The notes: a model not told the origin generated them from the letters alone. DNA of 64,000 bases from a virus (IMGVR_UViG_3300037245_001320:90019-154018), one strand, 5' to 3'. Counted from the stretch's first letter, positions 7,437 to 61,960 are shown. A program made the numbers and translations.

Positions 7437-7825
7437 AAGCCTCCCATCCTTTTGTTATTTCCATTAGCATATTCTAATAACCTTCCGAGCTCTTCACTAA
7501 TGGGTAAGAACCAATCTAAGGGAAAACTATTGTGTCTCCTCTGTTGTAAATCTTCTCCTTCATAATTATAAATACCCTCCAGTACACCAAACCTATCTTT
7601 AGATATATGCTTTACCTTTGCATAGAAGGGTTCTCCAGCAGAGGGAATATGTACCTGACACCATTCCCCAACAGATACTTCTTTCTTACTCAATGCTATA
7701 TTACTATTTACTTTTATTCTTTCCTGAATAGCTTCGATGTTCTCAAAAGGATATCTAATCCCATTCTCAACAATGTTCTTAATCTTCTCTAGATCTTCAT
7801 TGATCTGCTTCTTTACTTTTTGCAT
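7433..7825 (-). CDS. Hypothetical protein
   Basis: RBS; overlaps neighbours. Confidence 0.6.
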   Translation of the reverse strand: MQKVKKQINEDLEKIKNIVENGIRYPFENIEAIQERIKVNSNIALSKKEVSVGEWCQVHIPSAGEPFYAKVKHISKDRFGVLEGIYNYEGEDLQQRRHNSFPLDWFLPISEELGRLLEYANGNNKRMGGL

Positions 7826-8808
7826 ATTATCTCTCCTACGTTCCCTATTATTTTAAGTGTCTCCACTTCTTTTAAAATCTCTTCTAAATTATGTTCAACA
7901 ACGAGAGAATAATCTATAAAACAATATTTTTCATGATTTTCTTTTTTTGGCCAAATCCTCATATTTGTAGGACAGTTACATAATTGCATCAATCTCTTAA
8001 TCTCATTTTTATGTTTTTTCTCAGATAAAGTTAAAATAATGTCTCTAAAATAACTTAAAGGTATGATGTGATCTATGTGGTATTTATTGGAATCTTTATT
8101 ATAGTCCTTCCAAGTATACAATCCTTTATTGAATTGTTTTATATAATCCTCCCAAGAATATCCATTATCATAAATAATATCTTTAGTATGAAAGTCTTCC
8201 TGATTCTGTAAGTGTCTCCGTATACGCTTACAGAATTTCCTTAATTTCCTATTCATCTTGCCTTTTGGTGAATTGTTATAGGCTTTTGTGGTCCTCCTTC
8301 CTTGCTCAGACTCCCGATAACCTTTTGCTTTTTTCTTCCCTTCCTCTGTTTGTGCTCTTTTCCTGTTTCTTTCTTTGACTTCAGGCCGAGAATGATACTC
8401 TTTAGCATACTCTGGACAATATTTGGCAGGTGTTGTTAATTTGTATAGGTTTTCCCATGTTTGGTGTAATTCTTTATTGTTTTTATGGTCATAGAATAAC
8501 AGTAGTGCATTTGTGCTTTTTCGTTCTTCTGTTGAAAGTAACTTAAATCGTCCTCCTTTTTTGAGCAATATTGCATGCATATCTAGTAAAGAAAGCTTCT
8601 GCATACCTTTACGAGCACACATAATACAATTAGATCTGTTGTTTAGTACTTCAGAAACGGTGTTATTCCAACTATGTCCGCACCCATCAACCAAACACTC
8701 CCACTCCAGTACTTCTCCCGCTATCTTATATTCCTCAGAGACTAATTTTATATTTCGTCCCTCCAACCTAGTCTCAATTTCTTTTTTTGTTGTTAATTTT
8801 CTTCCCAA
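7813..8808 (-). CDS. Free-standing HNH endonuclease with N-terminal Zn-ribbon
   Basis: WEC..CGHSW..C..C; HIDHIIPL...NMRIW...NHEK. Confidence 0.8.
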   Translation of the reverse strand: MGRKLTTKKEIETRLEGRNIKLVSEEYKIAGEVLEWECLVDGCGHSWNNTVSEVLNNRSNCIMCARKGMQKLSLLDMHAILLKKGGRFKLLSTEERKSTNALLLFYDHKNNKELHQTWENLYKLTTPAKYCPEYAKEYHSRPEVKERNRKRAQTEEGKKKAKGYRESEQGRRTTKAYNNSPKGKMNRKLRKFCKRIRRHLQNQEDFHTKDIIYDNGYSWEDYIKQFNKGLYTWKDYNKDSNKYHIDHIIPLSYFRDIILTLSEKKHKNEIKRLMQLCNCPTNMRIWPKKENHEKYCFIDYSLVVEHNLEEILKEVETLKIIGNVGEIICKK

Positions 8809-8878
8809 TTATTTTACTTCCTTTTGTTCTGTTATATTAAATTTAAAAAGGCAGAAGATAAAACTACCTCTGCCTCTT

Positions 8879-8899
8879 ATTATACCATAGTGGGAATTT
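8879..8899 (-). promoter_or_regulatory. CCCACTATGGTATAAT promoter
   Basis: Exact copy of the 21-mer. Confidence 0.75.
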
Positions 8900-8909
8900 A
8901 TTTTAGTAT

Positions 8910-10629
8910 TTATGAAATTCTCACTTCTGAAATAAATTTTAAATCATCTTTGGAGAGCTCTAATCCAAACAAATCATACATTTCTAAGATATAGTCAGAT
9001 ATTCCATGTATAGGATCAGAAGCAAATAAATAGTATCGCTCTTCTTCTGAATATGAATCTCCTCCTCTCTCAGCTTCAATGAAGTTTGGTTCTGGATGTT
9101 CTTGTGCCTCAGCATAAAGATATAAACCATATACAAGCCCTTCTCGTTTTATGTAATCCCAAAACCCATCTAAATTACTAGCTGTACAAAAGCCCTCAGA
9201 AATCTCAATACCTATACCAGCACATGAATTGTAATCTACACTCATACCTTGTTTCCTTCTTTATCATATTTCTGCATATTACTCACATCCTTAGCAGTTT
9301 GTGCACAAGCTTCTTCGATCTCATTCCATTCCACTTCTCCATAACCAGACCAATTATCTACACCCATACCCTCTAACCCAGATAGCTCTTCTGACTCATT
9401 TAGTAGATTAATGTATTCTGTAGCTGTTATTAGTACATATTCTTCTTTCTTGCTCATATCTTACTCCTTTATTAGCTTTTGTATAGCATTACTTATTTTC
9501 TTTTCTTGCTCTTTGTCTTTATGTTGTTGCCATGCATTATTTAAATTCTCTAACAGTGATAACTCAGTATTGAATTTGTGCACTTCCGAAAAACTGTAAC
9601 CATAATATAAAGTAATCGTGTTTCCTTTTACTTTTAGATCATAGTCATATAACTTATGTCTCTCACAGAATCTGGTAATAATCTCAGAGTTCTTTAATGC
9701 TTTAACATAAGCCTCTAGTATACCAACTCTTACATCAATCACCTCATCTTTTGAACAAGGCACAACGGTTCCAACAACACCATCTTTTAACACAACTGTT
9801 GTAGTTCCTTTCTTCTCTGAAAATGTAATAAACTTAATATCATCAAATCTCCTAAGGTAATCCTCTACTAGACTTTCTCTGGTAACTTTCTTTACTAACT
9901 CTGCTGTTTCAAGGCAGTCTTTATACACCGGATCTCTTTCCTCAAACAGGGACACTATTAACTCCATTCCATTATACATACCTGTCATGTAATTGTCGTG
10001 ATCCCAATTCCCAGTAGATCCTTGAACTTTTAATAGTTCATTTGCTTTTTCTAACTTCTCTAACATTATTATTTCTCCTTATTTAATTATACTTGCTAAA
10101 TCATCAGGCATCCATCCATCTGAAGCAGACCCCCATACAATATAGGAACCATCATACCAATATCCAGCATTTATATCTTTTCCTACCACAGCTAAACAGG
10201 ATCCACCAAAACAACCACACCCTGCAATACTTATGCCTGTTTTTCTAGTTAACTTAGCTAATCCTACTAGAAAAACCTTTTCTCTTTCTTCCATATTATT
10301 TCTCCTTGTCATTTGCTTACCTTCTTCCAAAACTCCCTCAAGAGTTCTTTCTCTGTTTTCTCTTTCTTATCATAGGGCTTATGTAAAACATTCTCATAGA
10401 AGAACTTCATATATTCCTCTGAGTTCTTTACATCTTCCCACACTTCTTGCCATGTATAGCTCCCTGTAAAATAATCTGATATATCCCATGAACAGAAGCA
10501 ATGTTTGTACTTTCCTCCATCAGGAACATCTTCTTGGTGCCTCACTGCCTTTGATGCATTTCTTTTATCAATATATGTGTACTTTCCATGGTCTTGGTGG
10601 ATTGGGATTTTTCTGTAGCTTCTGGCCAT
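8910..10629 (-). other. Cluster of five small hypothetical phage genes (8910..9245, 9242..9457, 9461..10066, ~10079..10330, 10309..10629)
   Basis: Tightly packed ORFs with AGGAG RBSs; 9242..9457 carries the common phage GVDNW.GY motif. Confidence 0.6.
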
Positions 10630-25039: not shown

Positions 25040-26233
25040 TTACGTCAATCCTTCTTTCTTAATTTTCTGCTTTTCTTTATACTCATCTTTAAGTTCTTGT
25101 ACTTTCTTATCTAGCTCTTTTTGTGTGTACGGGACTAGTTGTGTGAAGCATTCCGTATAGCCTGCAAAATACTTCTTAGGCTCGTACTTGTATTCTTTAT
25201 GTAATTCGTGTAGTGCGTTTTCGATGTATGTAGCATTATATTTATTTGTTTCTATTTTCTTTACAACTGTGTAACTATAAGGTAAGTTTTGTCCTGAAAA
25301 ACGGTATGTTACTTTCCCCGAAGTAATCCCAATTTTCTTAAAACGTTCTTGGGAGTTGAACAGAGTAATGAAGTATACAGTTGCTTTACTTAGTAACCAT
25401 TCTTTCTTTTTATGCTCTGCTGTGGGAATAGTGTAGGGTGCATTATTTGGTGGATGGCAACAGGAACAGATAGGATAACAGGAAAGAACGTTCCAACTTA
25501 TATCTCTATTAAATCCACATTTCTTACATGTGAACCTTACAGTAGATATAGCTGTCACATCATAAGGAATAGTCGTACACTGCCAATTACTATAAGCTTG
25601 TTCTGTTAATCTATACATTAACAATTCCTTACTCATATTTAATGTATTACTGCATCTAGGGCATAACTGTTTTCGATGAAACATGTTTGTCCACAAAGGT
25701 TTCCACACATAGTTACAAGTAGCACATTTACAATGAATGGGTATATAGCAATCCACATATTCTTTAGATAATAATTGTATAGAAGCATAAAAAGGATGAG
25801 CTAATTTTTCAAGTATTCTTTTCTGTGACCAATGCTCCTGTTGAGAACAACGACTACAATTTGAGGATCCTGTTTTTATATAAGTCCAAGCTATATCCCA
25901 TATATAACCATCAATAGTACATTGCCATTTCATTTCCTCAGGAGAGTACACCTCTGATAGTCTTTTTATAGGTAATTTATATTCGTCTATATACTTATCT
26001 ATTAAGGGAATTGTCCACCGAGTAACTTTACTGGTAATAGTATTCCATGTTTCTTCTGTTATTCTATAGTATGTTGCTTTTTGGGGTTTTTGCCTCTTTG
26101 TCCAGTACGTATCTTTTACGATCTTATGCTTAGCCTTATCTAGCTTTTCCAATCTTCTTATAGCAGCTAATAAATTACTATGGTCTCTTCCTGTTTCCTT
26201 TGCTAAATCTAATGATGATTTTAGTTCTTCCAT
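25040..26233 (-). CDS. Rha-like N-domain, Zn-ribbon repeats and C-terminal GIY-YIG-like endonuclease
   Basis: SSLDLAKETGRDHSNLLAAIRRL; multiple CxxC; VYFI..KIGIT...E..LH...G.TECF. Confidence 0.7.
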   Translation of the reverse strand: MEELKSSLDLAKETGRDHSNLLAAIRRLEKLDKAKHKIVKDTYWTKRQKPQKATYYRITEETWNTITSKVTRWTIPLIDKYIDEYKLPIKRLSEVYSPEEMKWQCTIDGYIWDIAWTYIKTGSSNCSRCSQQEHWSQKRILEKLAHPFYASIQLLSKEYVDCYIPIHCKCATCNYVWKPLWTNMFHRKQLCPRCSNTLNMSKELLMYRLTEQAYSNWQCTTIPYDVTAISTVRFTCKKCGFNRDISWNVLSCYPICSCCHPPNNAPYTIPTAEHKKKEWLLSKATVYFITLFNSQERFKKIGITSGKVTYRFSGQNLPYSYTVVKKIETNKYNATYIENALHELHKEYKYEPKKYFAGYTECFTQLVPYTQKELDKKVQELKDEYKEKQKIKKEGLT

Positions 26234-26254
26234 TCTTATTTCCTTTTCCCAATT

Positions 26255-26400
26255 AAAAAAGCTTACTAATAAATTCCCTCTAAGTTGACCCGAAATACAA
26301 TACCAGTGTTTCTTGCATTTCTCTTAAAGGGATTTTTACTAATAAGCTCTGTTTGAGTTCACTATGATTTTTCACTGGATTTCTTAAAGAAGGGTCAAGT
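26255..26400 (-). promoter_or_regulatory. Structured leader / attenuator with two-box loop pairing
   Basis: ~20-bp stem followed by a U run; loop boxes complementary to upstream boxes. Confidence 0.6.
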
Positions 26401-26422
26401 TCTTTTTATATCTTCTTCCTCT

Positions 26423-26443
26423 ATTATACCATAGTGGGAATTT
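26423..26443 (-). promoter_or_regulatory. CCCACTATGGTATAAT promoter
   Basis: Exact copy of the 21-mer. Confidence 0.75.
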
Positions 26444-26459
26444 TTTTGAGGTGTTGTAA

Positions 26460-26493
26460 GAAAAACCCTCTCAGATGTGTGCAGAGAGGGTTT
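26460..26493 (-). terminator. Intrinsic terminator
   Basis: AAACCCTCTC...GAGAGGGTTT; U run on the - strand. Confidence 0.75.
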
Positions 26494-26497
26494 AGAA

Positions 26498-26959
26498 TTA
26501 TTTACTTTTTGTTTTCTTTGATTTTTTAACTCTTGGCTTCGGTTCTACAAAATCTATAGGTACCAGATATTCTTTTTTTACATTCTCTTCATATTCCCAA
26601 GCTGTAATCTTACATAAAAGTTTGTATAGGGTATCCCATGCAGGAGTTGTTTTTGCTTTCTTTTGCATAATATGAGCAGTCTCATGGCATTGAACACATA
26701 GAATAATAATATCCTCAGGCTCTTTATCTGTTCCCATCCGGTCATATTTAACATGGTGGCACTGCATCATTAATAATCGCTTCTTATCTCCTGCTTTTTT
26801 CTTCTTTTTAACAGAACCATTTTTCCAAATACTCCAGCGTTTTCTTTTACAAATAGCACAAACAACATCAGGGTTATCTAACAAGGACTTCGATCTACGC
26901 TTCCACCAGCTTGAGGACATGTAATTTTTATGTGTAATTTGTTTCTTATCCTCAGACAT
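26498..26959 (-). CDS. HNH (McrA-like Zn-binding) endonuclease
   Basis: CAIC...CHHVKY...LCVQCH. Confidence 0.7.
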   Translation of the reverse strand: MSEDKKQITHKNYMSSSWWKRRSKSLLDNPDVVCAICKRKRWSIWKNGSVKKKKKAGDKKRLLMMQCHHVKYDRMGTDKEPEDIIILCVQCHETAHIMQKKAKTTPAWDTLYKLLCKITAWEYEENVKKEYLVPIDFVEPKPRVKKSKKTKSK

Positions 26960-37312: not shown

Positions 37313-37387
37313 TACCTATAGATGGGCTTGAACCATCGACCCTCTGGATATGAGCCAGATACTCTAAACCAACTGAGCTATATAGGT
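37313..37387 (-). tRNA. tRNA with CAT anticodon (Met or Ile2)
   Basis: Full cloverleaf: ACCTATA/TATAGGT; TCTGG-CTCATAT-CCAGA; GATGG-TTCAAGC-CCATC. Confidence 0.92.
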
Positions 37388-42916: not shown

Positions 42917-42993
42917 ATTATACCATAGTGGGAATTTATTTGGGGTTTGGTTTGAATCTTAATAAATTTAACGGTTTTTGCCATGAATAAGTG
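42917..42993 (-). promoter_or_regulatory. CCCACTATG promoter plus upstream 24-bp conserved box
   Basis: 21-mer at 42917-42937; AACGGTTTTTGCCATGAATAAGTG at 42970-42993. Confidence 0.75.
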
Positions 42994-58654: not shown

Positions 58655-59437
58655 TCAATGTTTTTCTCCTTTTTTATTTATTCTTTCAGATGCAATATTA
58701 AAGTAATTCTCATCCAACTCTATACCTATAAAAGCTCTATTTAGATTCTTACACGCAACTCCAGTTGAACCTGATCCCATTGTGAAATCTAATACTGTAT
58801 CGCCTTCATTGGTATATGTTTTGATTAGATACTCCATTAGTGCAACTGGTTTTTGTGTTGGGTGTACTGCTGATTTCTGCTTGTCTGTCTTAAACTTTAA
58901 TACTGTTCTAGGGTATCTTTCTGTAGAATCATACCCTGTTAAACCATGTTCACCATAAACATCTGTCTTAACGCTATTTCTTTTATGTTCTGCTGTACTT
59001 ACTTTTCTTTCATGCCCTGTAGTTTTTTGAGGATTATATAAACAAGGCTTTTTATAAAATACACTAATTATTTCATTTGCTTTCATAGGCATTTTCTTAG
59101 CATTTAAATGTCCTGTAGCTGTGGTCTTTTCCCAAATCCAATCATACTTAAACTCTTTTAGGTTGCTCATTCGTAAATTACTGGAGAAGGGTTCTGATCC
59201 AAATAATACAATAGGAGTTGTATCTTTTCTTATTTTCCTTAATTTATCCCATAAACCCTCGATGCAAAGTTCTTTAAACTCATCTCTGATTAGTTCATAT
59301 GAATCGTAACTTGTTGAGAGTCGGTGAAGGATATACTCATTTTCATACATTACAACTTCTTTTTTTCCTTTTAATACTTTTATATACTTATTGAAAGGAA
59401 TGATTGAATCCCATTTACAGGCTGTTGTTCCAGTCAT
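58655..59437 (-). CDS. Beta-class DNA methyltransferase, C-terminal part
   Basis: GTTACKWD, HPTQKPV.L, DFTMGSGSTG, GIE.D. Confidence 0.85.
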   Translation of the reverse strand: MTGTTACKWDSIIPFNKYIKVLKGKKEVVMYENEYILHRLSTSYDSYELIRDEFKELCIEGLWDKLRKIRKDTTPIVLFGSEPFSSNLRMSNLKEFKYDWIWEKTTATGHLNAKKMPMKANEIISVFYKKPCLYNPQKTTGHERKVSTAEHKRNSVKTDVYGEHGLTGYDSTERYPRTVLKFKTDKQKSAVHPTQKPVALMEYLIKTYTNEGDTVLDFTMGSGSTGVACKNLNRAFIGIELDENYFNIASERINKKGEKH

Positions 59438-59580
59438 CCGTATGGAGGATCACAAATAATAGAATCAACCTTGATGTTGTTAGAAATTAAATAATCCATA
59501 ACTTCTAAGCATTCATCATTGTATAGCTCTGCTTTGCAGTCTCCATACGAAATAACCTCCTTTTTATAGTCTTTATTCAT
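59434..59580 (-). CDS. Beta-class DNA methyltransferase, N-terminal part (48 aa, ends DPPYG)
   Basis: LYNDECLEVM...VDSIICDPPYG*; its stop overlaps the ATG of the C-terminal part. Confidence 0.8.
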   Translation of the reverse strand: MNKDYKKEVISYGDCKAELYNDECLEVMDYLISNNIKVDSIICDPPYG

Positions 59581-60154
59581 TTACAAAATACTCCTTTATG
59601 TTTAATTTTAGGTTATGCCACTCATCTTGTGTCATATCATTCTTACAGCGATTCTCAAACCAAGACAAAAATTGTAAATTATTCAAGTCATTGTTTCCAC
59701 CTTTTGCCTTTGAAACTACATGGTCTATTGAGGGCTTTTTATATGCTTCAAAACCACTTACACACCATTTCTGATATACTGAATTAAATTGTTTTTGATT
59801 ATAGAACTTAGTTAAGTAGTCCTTGTACCACTCAGTGGTAACTTCCCATCTTCCACTTCTATTTGTAATAGCTTCATTTAAAAGTTTTAGCTTATTAAAA
59901 TCTTTAAATTGCATAAGATACCCAAAGCTCACATCAAATCTTAAATGAGTAGCCATGTTATTATAACGTCTTTCAGTGACACAATCAAACTTTTTCTTGC
60001 CTCTTAAATTTTTAGGTTTTCTAGTTTGTATATTTTCCCCTTTCAGTACTCTTGCTATAAGTTTATGATTAGTGCTGAACTTTAAAGCTATTTGCCTCAT
60101 TGACTTGCCCTTTTTATACATTTTACAAACTTCTTCTTTATTTATATTGCTCAA
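59573..60154 (-). CDS. HTH plus HNH endonuclease
   Basis: N-terminal HTH; PSIDHV...GG.N...NLQ...N..K. Confidence 0.8.
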   Translation of the reverse strand: MSNINKEEVCKMYKKGKSMRQIALKFSTNHKLIARVLKGENIQTRKPKNLRGKKKFDCVTERRYNNMATHLRFDVSFGYLMQFKDFNKLKLLNEAITNRSGRWEVTTEWYKDYLTKFYNQKQFNSVYQKWCVSGFEAYKKPSIDHVVSKAKGGNNDLNNLQFLSWFENRCKNDMTQDEWHNLKLNIKEYFVNE

Positions 60155-60174
60155 ATCTGTTTATTCCTTAAAGA

Positions 60175-60325
60175 TGTATAAGAAAGACTTTAGTTTTAGT
60201 GGGTTAGTCCGTTTTCCAAGATCAGCTACTAAATCTTTTCAACTCCCACTAAAACTAAAGTCTCTATATACCTTCAGTTATTTACGATTATTGTAGCTTT
60301 TTTCTTTATCAAAGAAGGACTAGTT
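60175..60325 (-). promoter_or_regulatory. Structured leader with a perfect 19-bp stem and two-box loop pairing
   Basis: Stem 60185-60203/60245-60263; loop boxes complementary to 60293-60298 and 60317-60322. Confidence 0.65.
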
Positions 60326-60341
60326 CTTTTACTCTATCTCT

Positions 60342-60418
60342 ATTATAGCATAGTGGGAATTTTTTTGATACTTCGTTGGAGTTTTAAGAAATTCAACGGT
60401 TTTTGCCATGAATAAGTG
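60342..60418 (-). promoter_or_regulatory. CCCACTATG promoter (one mismatch) plus 24-bp conserved box
   Basis: Same layout as 42917-42993. Confidence 0.75.
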
Positions 60419-60424
60419 GACTTT

Positions 60425-61960
60425 TTAGTAATAAGCATCATACCCATGGTTTACTTCATCTCGCCATTCCTGTCCTGTATTGGGTTTCCACAATCTTATA
60501 TCTTCTTCAACATCAGGAATATGATCCCATGAATCAGAAGACCACCGTGCATCAAGATTGAATAACCCTATTCCATTATTGCTCAGAGTAATTAGTGCAC
60601 GGGAAGCATCGTAAGGAATCTCCCTATGAAAAGAAACATATTGTCTGTATACCCCTAAATTTTTCTCATTCGGTGTTTGCTCAAGTTTTATTATAAAATT
60701 GGCATCTTGCTCCTTGGAAATACTGGATGCGAGTACATTCTCCCTTGAGAGCTGCGAAGCTGTATGGGTATGTAAGTGTCTGTCTTGACTCATTTTCTTC
60801 AAAGATTTCCACTGATTACCTATTCTTATCCTCTCATCAGCCCTCTCATCTCCCTTGTTGGCCTTTAACAAATCAGCGTAGTCTATAATTACACATTTTA
60901 TATCTACTCCATCATTTGCTCTTATCTGGTCTAGGTGTGGGATGAGGTCATCTTCTATAGAACAACTCATTTGGGACCATTCTTTACAGTATAACTTTGC
61001 TGTTGGGTTAAACATTCCAAAAGCTTTCCATTTCTCCTCTAATTCCTCAGGTGTTTTTGGGTCTTTTTGTAATTTTTTAAATACTATCTCTGTTCCTTCT
61101 CCCTTGCCTTTAAACATGGGAACGACCCCTGATCCTCCGTCTACATATTCTCTCAATATTTCTGCATCTATTAATGATAGAAATGCGTCCTCTGACATCT
61201 CAAGTGAGGCTATGAACACAGTTAGACCGTTTCTTAGGGCTTGACAAGCAAACCATGCAAGCTCTCGGGTCTTCCCAACCTTAGCCCTGGCTGAGCTGGC
61301 AGAAAGATGGCGCTCACATATTGGCCCATATAGCTCTGAAAAAGGGTACGACATTTCAAAGAGCACATCATCCCTATCTTTTGTTCGTCTAAACCTAGAG
61401 AAATCTTTCATGCCATCTACGGGTGCTCCAGGGGCTTGTCTTATCTGGGCATAATTTGCTATTGTTGCTTTAGCCTTAGTAGTGTTCCCTGTTAGCATAT
61501 TCTTCTCTACAGAATTAACTAATTTTTTAACTCCTTGTTTATCTAAATACTCTTCCGCTATATCTAGTTCAAATTTAACATTTATATCCCCTTCTCCATC
61601 TGCATACTGTTGGCTTATTGAGGATAAAAAGTCATTAATATCTTTCGATGTTGTGACATTTAGTTTACTTCTAGCACTTTCGTAAACACCTATAACATCT
61701 TTTTTCATGGCTGTTCCATAGGCTTCGTAAAATGTTTTGTTCCATTGTAAGATAGTTCTACAGACAACACTTTCTATAAGACTCATATCTGCTAACAAAG
61801 GTTTTACACCCTTAATGAACTCAGTACTCATGATGCTGTTTATACACATCTTCCTCTCAATACTCACGTCCCCCACCGATTTCGTCTCCTCAACTAAATC
61901 TTCTATATTAAACTCTGGTTCTTCTATGTTGCTCAAATGTTTATCTCCTTCTCTTACCAT
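60425..61960 (-). CDS. dnaB: DnaB-like replicative helicase
   Basis: ARAKVGKT, SLEMS, IIDYADL, TASQ..R. Confidence 0.85.
   Translation of the reverse strand: MVREGDKHLSNIEEPEFNIEDLVEETKSVGDVSIERKMCINSIMSTEFIKGVKPLLADMSLIESVVCRTILQWNKTFYEAYGTAMKKDVIGVYESARSKLNVTTSKDINDFLSSISQQYADGEGDINVKFELDIAEEYLDKQGVKKLVNSVEKNMLTGNTTKAKATIANYAQIRQAPGAPVDGMKDFSRFRRTKDRDDVLFEMSYPFSELYGPICERHLSASSARAKVGKTRELAWFACQALRNGLTVFIASLEMSEDAFLSLIDAEILREYVDGGSGVVPMFKGKGEGTEIVFKKLQKDPKTPEELEEKWKAFGMFNPTAKLYCKEWSQMSCSIEDDLIPHLDQIRANDGVDIKCVIIDYADLLKANKGDERADERIRIGNQWKSLKKMSQDRHLHTHTASQLSRENVLASSISKEQDANFIIKLEQTPNEKNLGVYRQYVSFHREIPYDASRALITLSNNGIGLFNLDARWSSDSWDHIPDVEEDIRLWKPNTGQEWRDEVNHGYDAYY

Follow-up and report, generated by a model that had tools for sequence, protein, structure and literature searches.

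A structured 5' leader with copy-specific long-range pairings, a candidate terminator-type attenuator, precedes free-standing nuclease genes in an uncultured phage lineage

To our knowledge, the taming of free-standing homing endonucleases is known in detail only for T4-type phages, in which simple hairpins and terminators restrain these enzymes. The 5' intrinsic terminators of T4 mobE and segF are thought to limit nuclease transcripts, and hairpins that sequester the ribosome-binding site (RBS) have been described for I-TevI/II/III, segB, and Aeh1 mobE (PMC2988022). The outcome of the P4 device is premature termination (PMC4825925), and the boxes of the c4 and CI systems covary between relatives (PMC2864571, PMC4825925). 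In guanidine-IV (mepA), termination is controlled by a kissing interaction between the loops of a 5' hairpin and of the terminator hairpin, and the kissing contact and the completion of the terminator compete sterically without sharing nucleotides (PMC11611296). The lambdoid PR'-6S RNA-tR' and Gifsy-1 IsrK systems combine a constitutive or late promoter with a short terminated leader, and read-through is needed for what lies downstream (PMC4825925).

In this study, we analyzed a leader, referred to as copy C, in a window that consists of the right-hand 64 kb of the 154,018-bp record of an uncultured virus from a marine-sediment metagenome (32.7% G+C). Positions are those of the window unless genome positions are named, and all features of copy C lie on the minus strand. 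A DnaB-like helicase gene (60425-61960, minus strand) is followed by a 270-nt spacer that contains a promoter and the leader. The spacer ends at the gene served by the leader, which encodes a free-standing HTH-HNH endonuclease of 193 aa (59573-60154, minus strand). This protein had weak Pfam matches to HNH and HTH_38, below the curated cut-offs, as well as PHROG matches to the endonuclease VII and HNH endonuclease families, and more than 360 homologues were found at 64-77% identity. The translation start region (60152-60169, minus strand) comprises the Shine-Dalgarno sequence AAGGA at 60169-60165 and a UUG start codon at 60154-60152, 28 nt past the long stem of the leader. Alignments with the homologues begin at residues 3-5, in support of the UUG start. 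The DNA methyltransferase gene that comes next downstream was found to be split directly after its DPPYG motif (59425-59445 and 58655-59580, minus strand) into a 48-aa ORF ending in TGA and a 260-aa remainder that begins at an overlapping ATG in another frame. At a further locus (L013:1325-1500), a 75%-identical HNH gene lies directly 3' of a methylase fragment that ends at DPPY.

The promoter of copy C (60342-60366, minus strand) consists of an A-tract, the sequence TTCCCAC, and the extended -10 element TGcTATAAT (-10 at 60347-60342), and it has no -35 hexamer. A simple sigma-70 promoter scan did not call this phage promoter, because it has no -35. The shared promoter sequence, AAAAAAATTCCCACTATGcTATAAT, occurs in about 12 near-identical copies in the 154-kb genome. 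Since the portal gene and other non-nuclease genes are also preceded by copies with the same consensus, it is a strong phage-specific promoter, and it probably belongs to the late class. An identical 24-nt element (CACTTATTCATGGCAAAAACCGTT) was observed at 60395-60418 and at 42970-42993 (both minus strand). These sites precede two promoter copies by about 30-35 nt, one behind the helicase gene and one behind the DNA polymerase gene. The sequence just before the A-tract of copy C (AAACTCCAACGAAGT) matched the promoter at genome position 69480 instead. As these two elements match different promoter copies, the promoter region looks mosaic.

A preliminary description of this leader had placed the promoter, two boxes, a stem, and the complements of the two boxes within the loop of that stem. 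Upon re-reading of the sequence, all of these were found at the same minus-strand coordinates. Near the 5' end of the transcript, the P1 hairpin (60311-60329, minus strand) pairs AAAGAA with UUCUUU (6 bp) around the 7-nt loop CUAGUCC, and this loop contains box a, UAGUCC (60322-60317). P1 belongs to the minimum-free-energy fold of copy C. The hairpin beside box a had been mis-drawn: box a sits in the P1 loop, P1 is present in nine of nine leaders of this kind, and the UUCUUUGAUAAAGAA hairpin that had been drawn is an alternative peculiar to copy C, which the sequence of copy D in the same genome does not permit. This alternative joins UUCUUU, the 3' arm of P1, to an AAAGAA farther downstream (60301-60316, minus strand), and box a would then no longer lie in a loop. 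Box b, AGCUAC (60293-60298), is single-stranded and lies 12 nt after P1, and a 27-nt A-rich linker joins it to the long stem S.

Stem S pairs a 21-nt 5' arm (60245-60265) with a 3' arm at 60183-60203. The perfect 19-bp stem of the earlier account (60263-60245/60203-60185) was borne out, and one G.U and one A-U pair at the base bring it to 21 bp (60265-60245/60203-60183). Within the stem lies the inner hairpin H (60218-60237), in which AAGAU and AUCUU enclose the terminal loop UUAGUAGCUG with b', GUAGCU (60229-60224). The second complement, a', GGACUA (60205-60210), lies in the stem interior between H and the 3' arm of S, and one nucleotide separates it from that arm. A U-rich tract (UUUCUUAU, 60178-60185) runs from the last base pairs of S as a terminator-like tail, and it is the weakest such tail among the nine leaders. 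Copy C is without the extension helix Sx, which most leaders have. The order of elements in the family is P1, box b, the A-rich linker, S, usually Sx, and H, followed by the U-run and the ribosome-binding site.

In the nested fold, a' and b' are unpaired and are thus free to dock. The 5' end of the leader, namely the P1 loop and box b, docks on the 3' internal loop and the tip of the long hairpin through two long-range pairings, a.a' and b.b', of pseudoknot or kissing type. In copy C, the duplex energies are -8.0 kcal/mol for a/a' and -9.1 kcal/mol for b/b'. The docking contacts and S have no nucleotides in common, apart from an alternative in copy C in which 4 nt of a' may extend S instead (AGUU/GACU), giving a small direct competition. 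The S domain of copy C folds with -35.2 kcal/mol on the sense strand versus -28.4 kcal/mol on the antisense strand, and the whole leader folds far better than its shuffles (z = -5.1).

We compared the complementarity of the boxes with that in dinucleotide shuffles. In 55% of shuffles, a single 6-mer complement linked the 70 nt upstream with the 41-nt interior of the stem, and nested double 6-mer complementarity between the same regions occurred in 291 of 5000 (5.8%). The bare double 6-mer complementarity of copy C alone is only marginal. These two frequencies are what one would cite for the view that the leader has no RNA function, and that its pairings either arose by chance in AT-rich DNA or reflect inverted repeats at the DNA level, such as recombination or homing scars. 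The preliminary description had itself held that frequent double 6-mers in shuffles would speak against the motif. For copy C taken alone this was nearly the case, but in the structural context such pairs were rare. When only pairings of box a in the P1 loop with the 3' internal loop, and of box b in the linker with the loop of the inner hairpin, were counted, 9 of 20,000 shuffles had both.

The genome was also scanned with a descriptor that calls for a P1 hairpin, a long stem ending in a T-rich tail, and ordered a/a' and b/b' pairings of 6 bp or more. On both strands of the 154-kb genome, only four leaders scored 29 or higher (29-34). These were copy C, with a score of 33, the leader at 26.3 kb, and leaders at genome positions 53.6 and 65.7 kb. 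Of the controls, the reversed sequence reached no more than 23, and unrelated phage and metagenome DNA (4.7 Mb) no more than 28. The automatic parse recovered every family element in copy C.

The same architecture was present in four leaders of the phage genome (A, B, C, and D) and in five leaders of its relatives. The relatives were reached via homologues of the Zn-finger HNH protein encoded behind copy A, in ENA, Logan, and JGI assemblies. Their leaders are L104, L105 (identical to L106), L107, L108, and L110, each of which has a variant of the promoter and leader. In all nine, P1 is 5-7 bp long, carries box a in a 6-10-nt loop, and lies 7-17 nt past the -10. Stem S begins 57-79 nt and finishes 155-182 nt past the -10, the inner hairpin carries b' in an 8-14-nt loop in nine of nine, and the start codon follows 16-28 nt beyond S. 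The S domains have energies of -31 to -44 kcal/mol. Since the nine copies belong to a single narrow lineage, kinship inflates the apparent replication.

Across these leaders, each box fitted its own partner. For box a, the longest perfect pairing had a mean of 6.56 bp with the cognate partner versus 3.32 bp with non-cognate partners, and for box b the means were 7.0 and 4.25 bp. The observed sum was reached in 0 of 100,000 partner permutations for either box (p<1e-5). Mean duplex energies were -8.5 (cognate) versus -3.0 kcal/mol (non-cognate) for a, and -9.4 versus -3.7 kcal/mol for b; only L107 had a degenerate b pairing. The pair statistics were computed by scripts, and the MAFFT alignment of the nine leaders was structurally incorrect. 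Orthologous leaders (B with L104; D with L107 and L108) covary in the classical manner while their flanks are kept. Between B and L104, the junction sequences are common, and a/a', b/b', and S have changed in step. D, L107, and L108 have S in common, with exchanges among G.U, A-U, and G-C pairs, and their boxes differ. These comparisons uphold the covariation within one genome that had been proposed, as boxes and stems are private to each copy and fit their own partners only. Matched element order and pairing with unlike box and stem sequences had been stated for leaders of one genome, and the statement holds for the four leaders there and for the five relatives as well.

G.U pairs are common in the family, and the S domain is more stable on the sense than on the antisense strand in nine of nine leaders, which indicates that the structure is read as RNA on this strand. 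These two features, the consistent position behind the promoter in nine of nine leaders, the cognate specificity of the boxes, the context-restricted shuffles, and descriptor scans without comparable control matches all stand against a chance or DNA-level-repeat origin. That origin is disfavoured, and we regard it as most improbable.

A covariance model was built from copy B alone, with nested helices only. With default filters it found six other leaders. With the filters off, it matched the full length of copy C with 29.5 bits (E 2.9e-5), and the next-best match in the copy C region reached 4.7 bits. Alignment to this single-sequence model misplaces D and L108. The existence of the leader as a structured RNA is well supported by these results. 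Being complex and pseudoknotted, and with a terminator-like end resembling an expression platform, its fold could be that of a ligand-sensing riboswitch or a self-cleaving ribozyme, and the outline of guanidine-IV is similar (PMC11611296). Against this, the nine leaders have no conserved core, loop, or junction nucleotides, and their boxes and loops are wholly different between copies. In the structurally incorrect MAFFT alignment, only the U-run and a few A/T positions are invariant, and Rfam returned no match. A riboswitch or ribozyme was rejected because of the lack of conserved nucleotides, and we consider either very unlikely.

The earlier picture of the stem had omitted the U-run, which makes the stem terminator-like in nine of nine leaders. 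Within the 8 nt past the last G/C pair of S, at least 6 T were found in nine of nine leaders, versus 2-3% of the 8-nt windows of the genome. A stable G/C-closed hairpin followed by a U-run, as in an intrinsic terminator, is therefore present in nine of nine, and the 5' arm of S often has an A-run ahead of it. A consensus terminator scan did not call stem S. The stem interior is 41-68 nt long and folds into further helices, and it is not the compact short loop of a standard terminator. As an intrinsic terminator, the composite hairpin would be unusual. The cassettes are separate transcription units, several of them flanked by ordinary small terminators. We also observed a further promoter copy at 8810-8914 (minus strand), followed by a plain terminator-like hairpin, GGCAGA...TCTGCC, with TTTTT. 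Behind it lies a gene (7813-8808, minus strand) for a protein of 331 aa with weak matches to HNH_4 and a treble-clef zinc finger, and this hairpin may be a simpler attenuator before a further nuclease.

The start region (-16 to +5) had a mean unpaired probability of 0.38 in copy C and of 0.38-0.75 over the nine leaders. Consistent sequestration is therefore lacking, and this speaks against a translational hairpin. Shine-Dalgarno sequestration was rejected, as no conserved Shine-Dalgarno pairing was found in the nine leaders. A non-terminating leader might still act on the mRNA as a 5' stabilizer, a processing site, or a translation modulator, by protecting it from 5'-end-dependent decay, by offering RNase III a site in the 19-21-bp duplex, or by tuning 30S binding through the rigid helix beside the Shine-Dalgarno sequence. 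The place of P1, 7-17 nt past the -10 and hence no more than about 11 nt from the probable start of the RNA, would suit such a role, as would an S long enough to be an RNase III substrate and a base of S that is 16-28 nt from the start codon. A stable hairpin that lies beside the RBS and does not sequester it is known from seg43(25) of Aeromonas phage 25 (PMC2988022). This explanation leaves the U-run after nine of nine long stems unaccounted for, and boosting the mRNA of a selfish nuclease under a strong promoter seems counter-productive. We consider it unlikely.

A free-standing nuclease gene was found downstream in nine of nine leaders. Three types are represented: HTH-HNH behind copy C, a Rha-T5orf172 fusion behind copy D, and Zn-finger HNH behind the other seven. 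The proposed tie to free-standing endonuclease genes stands to this extent, but it marks a module of the lineage and not nuclease families generally. At 52 IMG/VR loci with HTH-HNH homologues, the leader was found in none, using a descriptor that recovers all five outside positives. At L013, the 75%-identical HTH-HNH homologue is preceded by just a TATAAT box and a plain, short leader. Given the 52 loci, we rejected the idea that the leader accompanies the HTH-HNH family. The leader belongs to the promoter-leader module of the phage lineage and not to a nuclease family.

Two pairs of leaders allowed this point to be followed within the lineage. L107 is syntenic with copy D, with an upstream HNH gene at 51% identity, the same terminator, and a downstream PIF1 helicase at 65% identity. 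Over L107:1-3528 and 25040-26446 (minus strand), the leader is homologous, but L107 has a Zn-finger HNH gene instead of Rha-T5orf172. Copy C and L110 are both without the extension helix and have a 21-bp S, and their nucleases differ. These differences despite like leaders indicate that leader and nuclease are separable modules. The expected ATG of L107 opens a frame of only 18 codons, which ends upstream of the called gene.

The lineage itself has almost no relatives in GenBank or IMG/VR. Among GenBank phages, no nucleotide match to the phage was found, its DNA polymerase was 23% identical, and two nuclease types had only distant homologues. An IMG/VR scan with the promoter pattern returned only two small related contigs, without nuclease leaders, and looser promoter patterns in IMG/VR and metagenomes gave chance matches only. 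The terminase large subunit at L104:1298-2749 was 97% identical to that at genome 51092-51799, the best segment covering 236 of 483 residues, and the terminase gene of the 154-kb genome may be interrupted or mosaic.

From these features of the sequence, we infer a regulatory role for the leader, with termination as its mechanism. We think it somewhat probable that the nine copies represent an uncatalogued family of cis-acting 5' leaders (about 155-175 nt) in which a terminator-type attenuator doses nuclease expression. Most likely, the leader keeps nuclease production low. As the RBS is not consistently sequestered and there are no downstream target boxes, attenuation is the simplest function. 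S and its U-run would act as an intrinsic terminator, and most transcripts would stop about 155 nt past the promoter. Only read-through transcripts would be translated to give nuclease, and a potentially harmful enzyme would thus be kept at a low dose despite a strong late-type promoter. The two docking contacts may set the folding efficiency of this unusually long terminator. They could clamp the terminator and speed its folding, or, if formed first during transcription, they could sterically oppose the completion of S, as in guanidine-IV.

An extension of attenuation, in which the contacts serve as a real switch, seems doubtful to us. Here a.a' and b.b', if formed during transcription, would close the 5' arm of S into a loop, sterically hinder the 15-21-bp stem from being completed, and give read-through. 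Terminated leaders, whose number grows with phage DNA replication, would in turn vie in trans for these private boxes, and termination would resume. If this is true, each cassette would have an address-specific RNA dosage sensor, and nuclease output would be constant whatever the genome copy number.

Action in trans is also the core of another explanation, a riboregulator similar to C4, CI, or IsrK. Termination or processing would free the S domain as a stable small RNA, whose b' and a' loops would bind the a and b boxes of nascent sister transcripts in trans, or the start region. The result would be a dosage-dependent, address-specific feedback on the nuclease as the copy number of phage DNA rises. 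The layout is like the 5' half of the P1 immI leader (a1, b1, and c4 with a' and b'; c4-a1b1 in PMC2864571) and like P4 seqA upstream of CI (PMC4825925), and each cassette has boxes of its own, which have diverged faster than the sequence around them. L110 has, in addition, an 11-nt second box b (AATCGTACAAT, L110:1125-1139) that overlaps the Shine-Dalgarno sequence and the AUG (shuffle p<0.001). Its b' could therefore pair with either site and, at the start, block translation. In eight of nine leaders, copy C included, the 75 nt past S contain no significant a2 or b2. Raising the E limit to 10 brought no C4 match from Rfam, the surroundings are not those of an immunity operon, and partners in cis, being on one molecule, would as a rule prevail over pairing in trans. 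We hold such a riboregulator to be improbable, and return to cis-acting attenuation as the preferred function.

Rfam was searched in two ways. The program cmscan was run on both strands of 60100-60450 and 26200-26520 with E as high as 10, and it returned only miRNA, snoRNA, and leader noise and no match to the C4 clan. A scan of the whole window at the gathering thresholds returned one tRNA only (37313-37387, minus strand, 66 bits), the sole Rfam-catalogued RNA in the window. The motif is hence unmatched in a scan that included the C4 models, in line with the preliminary description, which had called it an unknown motif. That designation holds for a structured RNA shared by nine leaders. No description of this leader family was found in the literature searched. 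In terms of the described systems, it is a cis-regulatory terminator leader of a selfish nuclease gene that is absent from RNA catalogues. It adds to those catalogues a new structured RNA family with covariation evidence built in.

The leader is like P1/P7 c4 (Rfam C4 RF01695; c4-a1b1, PMC2864571) in having two upstream boxes complementary to two loops of a downstream RNA, with 6 bp each in copy C and cognate specificity over the nine leaders. It is also like P4 CI with seqA/seqC (PMC4825925), where promoter-proximal boxes pair with a structured RNA in the same transcript. Unlike c4 and CI, it has no covariance-model match and no RBS target boxes in eight of nine copies. Its structured part is a long terminator-like hairpin, and it stands before nuclease cassettes of lytic type, with no immunity operon. 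In outline it also resembles PR'-6S and IsrK, and no Q-like factor or qut site was identified at the leader. As other copies of the promoter are without the leader, any control by read-through would be specific to the nuclease cassettes. In contrast to guanidine-IV, there are two contacts (loop-bulge and strand-loop), the kissing sequences are copy-specific, and there is no conserved pocket. The leader would be a natural terminator hairpin whose loops are held by the 5' end of its own transcript, and it could serve as a programmable attenuator with private addresses.

The likeness to the T4-family endonuclease genes lies in the arrangement as a whole, in which a selfish nuclease expressed from late promoters is restrained by a 5' terminator or hairpin (PMC2988022). 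The simple hairpins of that family differ from the present leader, which is pseudoknotted, about 155 nt long, and wholly upstream of the ORF, and which does not consistently sequester the RBS. Unlike the T4-family solutions, one elaborate architecture, conserved in shape and free in sequence, is reused in this unrelated 154-kb phage lineage before at least three nuclease types.
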